A stretch of DNA of 64,000 nt from an uncultured Clostridia bacterium (GTDB lineage: Bacteria; Bacillota; Clostridia; Oscillospirales; CAG-272). The stretch covers positions 14,847 through 78,846 of the forward strand of contig CAMJPL010000009.1 of assembly GCA_946407735.1 (NCBI GenBank). Reading direction: 5' to 3'. Position 1 is the first letter of the stretch. Each line of letters opens with the position of its first letter. Made by a program: the position numbers and the translations under genes. Positions 27,165-57,845 of the stretch are shown one piece after another. Under the pieces are notes generated by a model. It worked only from the letters and a program-made list of their open reading frames with translations. It did no database searches and was not told the DNA's origin.

Positions 27165-27217
27165 CCTGCGCCGGGGAAACAGCTCCCCGACGGGTGTTTG
27201 TGTGTTCAAGATACGGA

Positions 27218-27296
27218 ATTTATTATCTGGGGGAGGGAAACCCTTCTGAAGAAGGGTTTCCCTCCCCCAGGCCCCCACCTTTCCCAAGACTTTTGC
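27218..27296 (-). repeat. copy A of a ~80-nt G-rich palindromic intergenic element
   Basis: The minus strand reads GCAAAAGTCTTGGGAAAGGTGGGGGCCT + perfect 18-bp hairpin GGGGGAGGGAAACCCTTC-ttca-GAAGGGTTTCCCTCCCCC + AGATAATAAAT. It lies 23 nt after the dapB stop and 53 nt before the MATE ATG. Confidence 0.75.
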
Positions 27297-27319
27297 TGCA
27301 AATTGTATTACCTATGTTA

Positions 27320-29077: not shown

Positions 29078-29165
29078 ATGCATGTAATATAATATACTGA
29101 TGCGCGCCGTCAGTCTGCCGCGGCGTTATGCGGCCGTGATCCGCGCAAGCGATATGTCTATACAT

Positions 29166-29461
29166 GATAGCTCTCCACAGCCCTTAGGGCTGTGACAGTC
29201 CGGCGGCTTCCGCCAGCCGGCCCGACATACGGCTTATGCGGCGCCGTACATCTCGGCGAAGCTTCCTCACGCGCCGCGTCCCGCCGCACGGGGTGCGAGA
29301 TACGTTTATTCAAGGGAGGGGGAAAACCCCTTCTGCAGAAGGGGTTTTTCCCCCTCCCTTGACCCACCCCTTTTCCCCAAGACTTTTACTAAAGGGAAAA
29401 GCGGTTTATATCGTTTTTTCTCGCTTCGCGGCGGCGCTGCTAAGCTCCGCGCCTCTATCTC
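29166..29461 (-). promoter_or_regulatory. lysine riboswitch (L-box) in the dapA-dapB leader, with an enlarged P2 arm
   Basis: The minus strand shows GATAGAGGCGCGGAGC (conserved AGAGGCGC 5' core), then TGAGGAAGCTTCGCCGAGA, CCGGCTGG and GGACTGTCACAGCCCTAAGGGCTGTGGAGAGCTATC (conserved ACUGUCA..GGAGAGC 3' core, with P1 closing GATAG/CTATC). Total span is ~296 nt against ~170-190 nt typical. Confidence 0.65.
29304..29389 (-). repeat. copy B of the G-rich palindromic element, embedded in the riboswitch P2 arm
   Basis: The minus strand reads GTAAAAGTCTTGGGGAAAAGGGGTGGGTCAA + GGGAGGGGGAAAAACCCCTTC-tgca-GAAGGGGTTTTCCCCCTCCC + TTGAATAAAC. Confidence 0.75.
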
Positions 29462-29498: not shown

Positions 29499-29527
29499 AT
29501 TTTATCACTTACTGCCGAGATTGTCAA
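29499..29527 (-). promoter_or_regulatory. dapA leader promoter TTGACA-N17-TAAAAT
   Basis: The minus strand has TTGACA (29527..29522), a 17-nt spacer and TAAAAT (29504..29499), ~35 nt upstream of the riboswitch 5' end. The -35 overlaps a plus-strand TTGTCA (29521..29526) that could serve queA. Confidence 0.65.
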
Positions 29528-56673: not shown

Positions 56674-56691
56674 AACATAACATATACCTGT

Positions 56692-56771
56692 ATAGAAGTC
56701 TTTGAGGAAAGAGGGGGTATGGGGAGAGAACCCCTTTCCTCAGAAAGGGGTTCTCTCCCCCGCAAATAAAC
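56692..56771 (+). repeat. copy C of the G-rich palindromic element (opposite genomic orientation to A and B, but co-oriented with local transcription)
   Basis: ATAGAAGTCTTTGAGGAAAGAGGGGGTAT + perfect 18-bp hairpin GGGGAGAGAACCCCTTTC-ctca-GAAAGGGGTTCTCTCCCC + CGCAAATAAAC. It lies 18 nt after the trmFO stop and 9 nt before the plsX ATG. Confidence 0.75.
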
Positions 56772-56780
56772 TCATTCGTC

Positions 56781-57845
56781 ATGAAAATCATCTTGGACGC
56801 CATGGGCGGCGACAACGCGCCGCTCGAGGTAATAAAAGGGGCGGTTATGGCCGCCGCGGAATACGACGCCGTCATCGTGCTCGTCGGTCAGACTGAGACG
56901 ATAAAGCAGTGCGCCTCGGAGAACGGGCTTAAGATCGAACCCGAAGGGGACGGCCCGCGGAAGATAGAGATAGTCGAGGCTCCCGACATAATAACCATGG
57001 AGGATCCGGCGCTGTCGGTGAGAACGAAGCGTGAATCGAGCATGGCGGTCGGGCTTCACCTTCTCAAGGACGGAGGCGGCGACGCCTTCGTCTCGGCGGG
57101 CAACACCGGCGCTCTTTACGCCGGAGCGTCGCTCATCGTCGGAAGGATCAAGGGCTTCCGCAAGGCCGCAATCGCCACCGTGATGCCGTTCACCGATCCC
57201 ACGCTTCTCATCGACTCGGGTGCAAACGTCTCGGTGTCCGCCGAGAACCTGCTCCAGTTCGCTCATATGGGCTCGGTCTATATGGAAAACGTGCTCGGAG
57301 TGCAAAGCCCGCGCGTCGGGCTGCTCAACAACGGCACCGAGCCTCACAAGGGCACCGACATGATGATAGAGGCTCATAAGCTGATATCGTCCGACCCGCA
57401 GATAAACTTCATCGGCAACGTCGAGGCGAAGACGGTGCCGTCCGGCGGCTGCGACGTGCTCGTCACCGACGGCTTCACCGGCAACATCTTCCTCAAGCTC
57501 ACCGAGGGACTCGGATCGCTTCTGTTCGGCCGCATCAAGGCCATGTATAAAAAGAATGCCCTGACGAAGCTGTCGGCGGCGATGGTGATGAAGGACATGA
57601 AGGCGATGAAGAAGGAGTTCGACGCCTCGGAGTACGGCGGGGCCCCGATCCTAGGCATCTCGAAGCCGGTCATCAAGACCCACGGTTCGTCGGACGCCCT
57701 CGAGGTGAAGAACGCGGTGCGTCAGGCGATATCCTATGTGAACTCCGGCGTCATCATGCGTCTCGCCGAGTCTGTCGGAGCCGCGTCTCCGGCGCAGCCT
57801 GCCGCGCCGCAGCCGGCAGCGCCTCAGCCGGAGGATAAGCAATGA
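56781..57845 (+). CDS. plsX: phosphate acyltransferase PlsX
   Basis: MKIILDAMGGDNAP and GNTGA motifs. Low-complexity AAPQPAAPQP tail. No SD upstream. Confidence 0.95.
   Translation: MKIILDAMGGDNAPLEVIKGAVMAAAEYDAVIVLVGQTETIKQCASENGLKIEPEGDGPRKIEIVEAPDIITMEDPALSVRTKRESSMAVGLHLLKDGGGDAFVSAGNTGALYAGASLIVGRIKGFRKAAIATVMPFTDPTLLIDSGANVSVSAENLLQFAHMGSVYMENVLGVQSPRVGLLNNGTEPHKGTDMMIEAHKLISSDPQINFIGNVEAKTVPSGGCDVLVTDGFTGNIFLKLTEGLGSLLFGRIKAMYKKNALTKLSAAMVMKDMKAMKKEFDASEYGGAPILGISKPVIKTHGSSDALEVKNAVRQAISYVNSGVIMRLAESVGAASPAQPAAPQPAAPQPEDKQ

Follow-up and report, generated by a model that had tools for sequence, protein, structure and literature searches.

The three palindromic copies in the window, i.e., the whole stretch of 64,000 nucleotides that was analysed (C9:14847-78846), belong to a dispersed repeat family of about 125 copies in the source genome, and in this family three strands of each copy, the two arms of a hairpin and a segment located 5' of it, vary together. 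Both the repeat family and its three-way covariation are near certain. Comparison of the copies makes it probable that this is a mobile, non-autonomous family of the BoxC/PIT/TMECO kind, whose G-rich strand would fold as an alternate-strand intramolecular triplex. The property conserved in the family is then probably the predicted fold and not the sequence.

The source assembly comprises 3.57 Mb in 111 contigs, with 56.5% GC and 93% completeness. Relatives of its DapB protein place the host in an uncultured, Oscillospirales-like lineage of Clostridia known from gut, rumen and digester samples. Gene calls were codon-usage ORF calls made in this analysis, and the genes flanking the copies were assigned by Pfam as DapA, DapB, MatE, TrmFO (GIDA family) and PlsX. 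A crude scan for AAGTCTT plus a hairpin gave about 65 copies genome-wide. With nhmmer 137 loci were recovered, 124 of them at 30 bits or more, and only two of these 124 copies were intragenic, the rest being intergenic. A covariance model run with filters off matched the window exactly three times, at 27220-27299 (minus strand), 29306-29392 (minus) and 56690-56770 (plus), with scores of 73-75 bits; these are the three copies that a preliminary description, made from the window sequence, had pointed out. A further copy was observed on the same contig at C9:79676-79771, approximately 830 nt past the 3' end of the window. The Rfam search at the element returned no curated RNA family, only the flanking lysine riboswitch and sub-threshold miRNA-hairpin noise.

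Each unit is approximately 85-100 nt long and consists of a 5' box, (T)GTAnnAAAAG, a segment of 17-22 nt (the third strand), a turn of 1-4 nt, a hairpin with a near-perfect stem of 18-26 bp (arms X and Y) and a centre of 2-4 nt, and an A/T-rich tail of about 9 nt. The architecture first described, with an AAGTCTT box, a G-rich segment, a hairpin of 18-25 bp and an A-rich tail, was thus recovered, except that the supposedly fixed tail AATAAA(C/T) is simply A/T-rich across the family. The parts of the window copies and the features around them are as follows.

27218-27299, minus strand: copy A, whole, flanked by the dapB stop codon (27320) on one side and the start of matE on the other; model R1 scores it at 74.9 bits
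27290-27299, minus strand: copy A, 5' box GCAGCAAAAG; family consensus (T)GTAnnAAAAG
27272-27289, minus strand: copy A, third-strand segment TCTTGGGAAAGGTGGGGG; reversed it reads GGGGG-T-GG-AAA-GGG-TTCT against the 5' arm GGGGG-A-GGG-AAA-CCC-TTCT
27227-27270, minus strand: copy A, hairpin with a perfect 21-bp stem and a CT-TC-AG centre; -26.5 kcal/mol as ssDNA, z -5.8
27218-27226, minus strand: copy A, A/T-rich tail ATAATAAAT
29302-29393, minus strand: copy B, whole, inside the P2 region of a lysine riboswitch
29363-29382, minus strand: copy B, third-strand segment TCTTGGGGAAAAGGGGTGGG; mirror GGG-T-GGGG-AAAA-GGGG-TTCT against the arm GGG-A-GGGGG-AAAAA-CCCC-TTCT
29311-29361, minus strand: copy B, hairpin with arms of 25 and 24 nt, one bulged A and a GC loop; -29 kcal/mol, z -6.6
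56689-56771, plus strand: copy C, whole, filling the 107-nt trmFO-plsX spacer
56699-56717, plus strand: copy C, third-strand segment TCTTTGAGGAAAGAGGGGG
56721-56760, plus strand: copy C, hairpin with an 18-bp stem and a CTCA loop; -24.4 kcal/mol, z -5.8
29160-29461, minus strand: lysine riboswitch in the leader of dapA-dapB, split by copy B; the aptamer is intact in congeners, at about 194 nt
29499-29527, minus strand: near-consensus promoter-like site TTGACA-17-TAAAAT with extended TG, upstream of the riboswitch

Among the 99 copies that could be parsed, 95 hairpin sequences were distinct and 68 stems were perfect, mismatches making up 2% of stem pairs, and the median pairwise identity among copies was 0.77. 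Pair counting gave 111 compensated alignment cells, against 41.9 +/- 4.4 in shuffles. Folded as ssDNA, the window hairpins reached -24 to -29 kcal/mol with z values of -5.8 to -6.6, and the segment upstream stayed unpaired in Watson-Crick folding. The box starts variably with GTAG, GTAT, GTAC or GCAG, and the third strand, 17-22 nt long, lies between it and the palindrome. Outside the unit the flanks are unique to each locus and A/T-rich on both sides. No copy-specific pairing was found for a closing helix between the 5' flank or box and the tail, and a motif search, both at the neighbouring stop codon and 5' of the box, returned only A/T-richness and stop-context k-mers. Neither a longer master element nor shared flanks were detected, the shared pieces being neighbouring copies or paralogous genes.

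The segment first described as a G-rich spacer is, copy by copy, a mirror of the 5' arm X, and read 5' to 3' it runs parallel to the 3' arm Y. The sub-families show this directly, as box-proximal bases and the loop-proximal stem vary in step across them: AAAAG followed by TCTTT occurs with the stem centre CT-TC-AGAAA, AAAG followed by CTTTT with C-TC-GAAAA, AAAG followed by TTTTT with T-TC-AAAAA, and AAAG followed by TTCTTGGG with AC-AAGAAGGG. The base table of the third strand against Y was filled by A:T (432), T:A (427), G:C (616), G:G (228) and C:G (117), all other cells holding 22 or fewer. Run lengths in the third strand and the duplex were equal in 90 of the 99 copies for the loop-proximal run (values 4-7), in 75 for the core and in 56 for the A-run. 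Directly after the outer G-run the pairs of third strand and arm were A:A in 54 copies, T:A in 30, T:C in 10 and A:C in one, i.e., T stands opposite an A or a C interruption and A, save in that single case, opposite A; T faced A or C in 40 of 95 copies.

A third strand fitted its own hairpin with a score of 18.4, against 7.3 for the hairpins of other copies and 9.1 for the best of 2000 permutations, and the own hairpin ranked best of 99 in 38 copies. An untrained triplex matrix set a priori gave 15.1 for own versus 10.0 for other hairpins, a value that none of 5000 permutations reached; with the arm reversed as a control the same matrix gave 7.9 versus 7.2. In a maximum likelihood tree built from the element sequences themselves, which makes it conservative, the loop-proximal run required at least 21 changes in the third strand and at least 22 in the duplex but only 27 in the joint state; for the core the counts were 37, 41 and 49, respectively. 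Most changes were thus coordinated. The mirror rule was replicated in a genome of another genus (G015), where the own hairpin was best in 10 of 12 copies and none of 5000 permutations reached the observed score. Copies in relative G017 also obey the code, but are short and homogeneous and hold no power, and the copies from viral contigs conform to it as well, with T opposite C and an unusual AGGAGA block among them. The preliminary description had offered selection on structure or hairpin-templated copying as the cause of the compensated stems. The former is now better supported than was first seen, because three strands are covered and not two, and the latter fails, because the relation of the 5' segment is a mirror one, non-complementary, which such copying cannot yield.

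We infer that the three-strand covariation reflects selection for a triplex, and a triplex is, on the evidence of this code, the likely reading of the mirror relation. On the G-rich strand the third strand would pair in antiparallel direction with the outer, purine-rich half of the 5' arm, forming purine-motif (reverse-Hoogsteen) triples, G.G-C with A.A-T or T.A-T and with T.C-G at interruptions. It would then cross the groove and continue parallel to the 3' arm, along the half next to the loop, which is rich in purines, through T.A-T, C+.G-C and G.G-C triples. As both an antiparallel and a parallel pairing are available, and both flanks are A/T-rich, the strand could fold back twice when the DNA is single-stranded or locally melted, giving an alternate-strand intramolecular triple helix. 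The code matches the so-called alternate-strand design for 5'-(Pu)m(Py)n-3' targets, reportedly due to Beal and Dervan. Synthetic alternate-strand triple helices are said to have been made by Beal and Dervan and by Jayasena and Johnston in the early 1990s, with a third strand of natural polarity combining an antiparallel purine motif and a parallel pyrimidine motif on a 5'-(purine)m(pyrimidine)n-3' duplex. Those were designed, intermolecular oligonucleotides, whereas in Clostridia the proposed design appears in a natural, intramolecular, multi-copy element. Like an intrastrand-triplex repeat, it carries hairpin blocks and a third block that follows mirror rules. In the nomenclature of Hoyne and Holder the proposed fold corresponds to class I plus class IV (PMC4666352). 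The complementary C-rich strand offers a nearly equivalent code (class III plus II), so a fold of that strand or of RNA keeps some probability; however, T facing A or C in the third strand counts, like the 228 G:G positions, as canonical or semi-canonical in a reading of the G-rich strand alone. Some points count against a triplex: the core code is noisy, with third-strand GTCGG, GCCGG and GCGG facing arm CCACC, CCGAC and CCGC; core G.G-C triples would need the less usual parallel orientation; and pairing is conserved in the 2-3 bp farthest out on the stem, which leaves a turn of only 1-2 free nt.

Two smaller repeats were observed in association with the element. A second palindromic repeat, TGAATAAGTC(C/G)GC-N3-GC(G/C)GACTTATTCA, occurs in 44 copies genome-wide, none of them in the window (examples are C1:280083, C26:7110, C31:19056, C6:43725 and C6:64113). 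About 16 of the 44 are nested in the element, at one of the two places where the proposed fold would form a loop: exactly at the turn from third strand to hairpin, or in the loop of the hairpin itself; the remaining copies sit at the apex of a different repeat, CCCCTG...CAGGGG. A third mini-hairpin, CCTTTGCGGC-N3-GCCGCAAAGG, noted at C7:5584, C16:19290, C16:24380, C23:9681, C86:6406 and C7:87846, is present in seven copies, and six of the seven lie within hairpin loops of the element, directly after CTCGAA or CTTCAGA. The sub-lineage bearing it has about 50 nt of A/T-rich sequence in common upstream of the box.

Empty sites were sought between species, in three genomes of the same genus, and all three window sites were empty there. 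The dapB-matE spacer measures about 125 nt here versus 4-11 nt in one congener (G002) and a 4-nt overlap in another (G003), and the 107 nt between trmFO and plsX stand against abutting genes in G002 and an ATGA overlap in G003. Since the plsX ATG overlaps the trmFO stop codon in congeners, the insertion of copy C would have broken translational coupling. At the site of copy B the congeners have an intact lysine riboswitch with an uninterrupted P2 arm, scoring 72-74 bits versus 46 bits in the window, where the aptamer has a hole of 59 positions in P2 and the alignment carries approximately 125 extra nt, copy B included, between the conserved 5' (GATAGAGGCGCGG) and 3' halves. The promoter-like site upstream of the riboswitch places copy B inside the transcript. 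Copies A and C lie at gene junctions, and copy B, which sits within a riboswitch, does not merely precede a gene. Three further observations were made at these sites. The matE gene 3' of copy A has an apparent TTG start about 30 nt past the stem (27170-27226) and approximately 17 N-terminal residues fewer than the G002 orthologue, and plsX (ATG at 56781; region 56761-56783) is without a Shine-Dalgarno sequence. In copy A, the centre TTCAGA and the tail GATAAT (27222-27250, minus strand), spaced by 17 nt, resemble a weak sigma-70 promoter directed out of the tail (9 of 12 positions); such a match occurs in only one of the three window copies, and the spacing is too long with longer stems.

Genome-wide, 40 copies lie sense and 51 antisense between tandem genes, 24 between convergent and 7 between divergent genes, and 2 are intragenic. 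The co-orientation with transcription noted at first is real for the three window copies and does not extend to the genome, where the scan added many copies (124 at 30 bits or more) and no orientation bias. As indicators of replication strand, GC skew and the majority direction of neighbouring genes revealed no bias either, copies being split 62/55 by GC skew. The 124 copies are over-represented relative to chance and dispersed, without preference for strand or gene orientation. Sense and antisense copies were equally conserved, and G.T (16) and A.C (10) mismatches in the stems were similar in number, so that wobble gave no strand preference. Purine-motif triplexes have been reported not to form in RNA (PMC4666352). 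Because of the mixed orientation, the lack of skew bias, the equal conservation, the similar mismatch counts and the reported unsuitability of the purine motif for RNA, a fold at the DNA level is moderately favoured, and we infer that the active form is DNA and not RNA. The distances to genes show a regularity. On the tail side, the median distance from the end of the stem is 18 nt to a convergent stop codon (IQR 16-23, n=58) and 25.5 nt to a co-oriented start codon (IQR 19-36, n=40); on the box side the spacing is much less tight (medians 67 and 37 nt), and the distributions extend far toward high values. The tail-side spacing fits insertion exactly at gene junctions, with a poorly conserved tail of approximately 16-20 nt belonging to the element, and it equally fits a limit set by the ribosome footprint. 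Its tightness toward stops and starts hints at a translation- or transcript-related constraint, which the triplex explanation does not account for.

Sequence comparison also makes it fairly probable that the element is mobile. None of the three window sites is occupied in congeners, the source genome has at least 110 copies versus 3 in each congener, and the flanks are unique to each copy. A copy in G003 beside a 234-aa ORF has no counterpart at the equivalent position in the source genome, so that this copy is not shared. A look-up of identical proteins for strain-level empty sites returned no record. The first suggestion of a REP- or MITE-like dispersed repeat is supported. As a MITE in the strict sense the element was rejected, there being no target-site duplication and no pairing of 5' flank or box with the tail as terminal inverted repeats; the longest flank match, taken as the sign of a target-site duplication, was 5.18 versus 5.30 in controls. 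Multi-copy transposase-like genes were not found in the fragmented source assembly. A few head-to-head (box-to-box) doublets were noted, at C6:43592-43808 and C52:5708-5887 in the source genome and at C12:35716-35925 and C16:7279-7493 in G015; few in number, they recall inverted TMECO pairs and REPINs.

In the bacterial family to which the source genome belongs, the element was detected in at least 31 of 151 genomes and at least 22 of 97 genera (29 candidates scored per genome). Sixteen genomes of the order that lie outside this family were all negative when scored in the same way. Other genera of the family show separate expansions. The occurrence is patchy, covering at least 22 of the 97 sampled genera and four viral contigs; the latter come from 80 pattern-scan loci, of which four were upheld by the covariance model and the remainder were mostly chance matches. 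Copies in G015 (loci L091-L102, genus g13) carry an extra conserved box, GGTCTT(A/T), directly 3' of the hairpin, which is absent from the source genome.

Other causes of the mirror relation were considered. It might arise from a single protein that recognises both the 5' segment and the hairpin, or from some copying process, the element being a protein-binding or structural DNA site. Sequence-specific contacts are suggested by the conservation of the 5' box and of the CT-TC-AG centre, the element is anchored beside genes by its tail side, and the support for the triplex is comparative. Such a cause is nevertheless quite improbable: 95 of 99 hairpins are distinct with nearly every position variable, which speaks against a protein that reads the sequence of the variable parts, polymerases make direct or inverted copies and not mirror copies, and the observed substitution table is the known triplex code, T.C-G included. 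A G-quadruplex, or a switch between hairpin and quadruplex, was raised at first because the 5' segment and 5' arm of copies A and B together hold at least four G3+ tracts. That count stands, but the canonical motif, in which loops of 1-7 nt join four G3+ tracts, occurs in no more than 23 of 99 copies, two such tracts or fewer are present in 41 of the 99, and the concordance of A/T positions and run lengths is not predicted by a quadruplex; the family census has largely refuted this reading, which is very improbable. The earlier view that the elements are not classical terminators agrees with the terminator scan, in which no full copy was flagged on either strand; a loose pattern matched only the inner 5-bp sub-stem of copy B on the plus strand, the tail is A-rich, and the opposite strand is C-rich after the stem.

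An RNA-level module would consist of the C-strand hairpin with a pyrimidine-rich 3' strand, forming a U.A-U / C+.G-C triple helix or acting as a plain strong hairpin in mRNA 3'-end protection or processing; in about 60% of copies transcription of the C-rich strand would follow directly on a stop codon, and in about 40% the element would lie in a 5' leader. Stem-to-stop and stem-to-start distances (medians of 18 nt in 58 copies and 25.5 nt in 40) place it just outside ribosome footprints, divergent promoter-only spacers are depleted (7 of 122 versus 23% expected), and pyrimidine-motif triplexes are able to form in RNA (PMC4666352). We regard it as unlikely, as both orientations are common (40 vs 51) and equally conserved, third-strand T opposite A or C (40 of 95) becomes a non-canonical A when the C-rich strand is read, neutral pH disfavours 4-6 C+.G-C triples in a row, G.U-type wobble is in excess on neither strand, and a U-tract is lacking. 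For the same reason of equal conservation in sense and antisense copies, the orientation-dependent mRNA role proposed earlier is not favoured. With respect to mobilisation, an ordinary REP/REPIN moved by a RAYT (Y1 HUH transposase), for which the GTAG-like 5' box would be the cleavage or recognition site, would agree with short palindromic intergenic repeats, many of them starting with GTAG, GTAT or GTAC, with the lack of target-site duplication as in IS200/IS605 and REP elements, and with the few head-to-head doublets. REP elements, however, have no mirror third strand, and the enzyme is missing where it would be needed. The absence of a RAYT from the window, as first reported, extends to the whole source genome, where the Y1/RAYT profile (PF01797) had no match and control profiles did, and to every element-rich relative (G015, G017 and G023). 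PF01797 was instead present in 17 relatives, of which 16 had no element match at E <= 0.001 and one (G019) had two weak matches. This explanation is therefore very improbable. If the element folds as proposed, the fold may be recognised by trans-acting machinery for spreading, or may allow copies to persist.

Among known systems the nearest are the intrastrand-triplex repeats called BoxC, PIT (potential intrastrand triplex) or TMECO, which occur in E. coli and other Proteobacteria (Hoyne et al., 2000; Holder et al., 2015, PMC4666352). These repeats and the Clostridia element alike are interspersed intergenic repeats with a hairpin and a third block on one strand under purine-motif rules, without gene-orientation bias, very different in copy number between close relatives, occasionally arranged as inverted doublets, and without a known function or mobilising enzyme. 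TMECO is 34-36 nt long with 9-nt blocks and one purine tract (class II), against approximately 85-100 nt and stems of 18-26 bp in the Clostridia element, and has a fixed consensus, CCCTCNCCC-N3-6-GGGNGAGGG-N3-GGGNGAGGG, whereas the Clostridia element differs in almost every copy, with three-way compensation. In the latter the third strand would lie 5' of the hairpin (class I) and switch strands to class IV near the loop, there are a conserved 5' box and an A/T-rich tail with the tail side 16-25 nt from gene ends, and the occurrence is in Clostridia and viral contigs. The TMECO consensus had no match in the source genome, so the Clostridia element is a different sequence family. With REP/REPIN elements it shares abundance, short palindromic extragenic form, location usually beside gene 3' ends and lack of target-site duplication, and its 5' end may also be counted as GTAG-like; it differs in that the element-rich genomes tested have no Y1/RAYT, that REPs have no mirror third strand, and that doublets are rare. 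The ENE/MALAT1-type RNA triple helix resembles it in that a hairpin-borne tract clamps a neighbouring strand in the major groove, and many copies of the element lie right after a stop codon; in ENE, however, a U-rich internal loop and an A-rich tail do so in RNA, whereas the Clostridia element is best met by a purine motif of the G-rich strand, with mixed orientation. A literature search found no paper on a natural alternate-strand triplex repeat, nor on such a family in Clostridia.

It is a question of long standing whether living cells form DNA triplexes and whether these matter there, and for TMECO in E. coli in-vivo DMS probing showed no stable triplexes (PMC4666352). As BoxC/PIT/TMECO repeats are nearly invariant in sequence, they could give no covariation evidence. 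Here about 125 naturally varied copies in one genome, together with those in other genera and on phage contigs, have all three strands varying together, which is the type of evidence that established RNA secondary structures, now for a triple helix. The copies also form a natural allelic series for biophysics, with wild type, natural mismatches and natural compensations. For the bacteria themselves, the insertions at the formerly overlapping dapB-matE and trmFO-plsX junctions and in the lysine riboswitch are a natural experiment on the robustness of operons and riboswitches, and the family points to a mobilisation mechanism that targets gene junctions. We tentatively suggest, as one possibility, that a natural alternate-strand DNA triplex might be the recognition structure for a Y1-independent mobilisation of ssDNA, acting without target duplication at stop/start junctions and even in a riboswitch helix. 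If so, the family would be the first comparative-genomic case of sustained selection for a DNA triplex in vivo.
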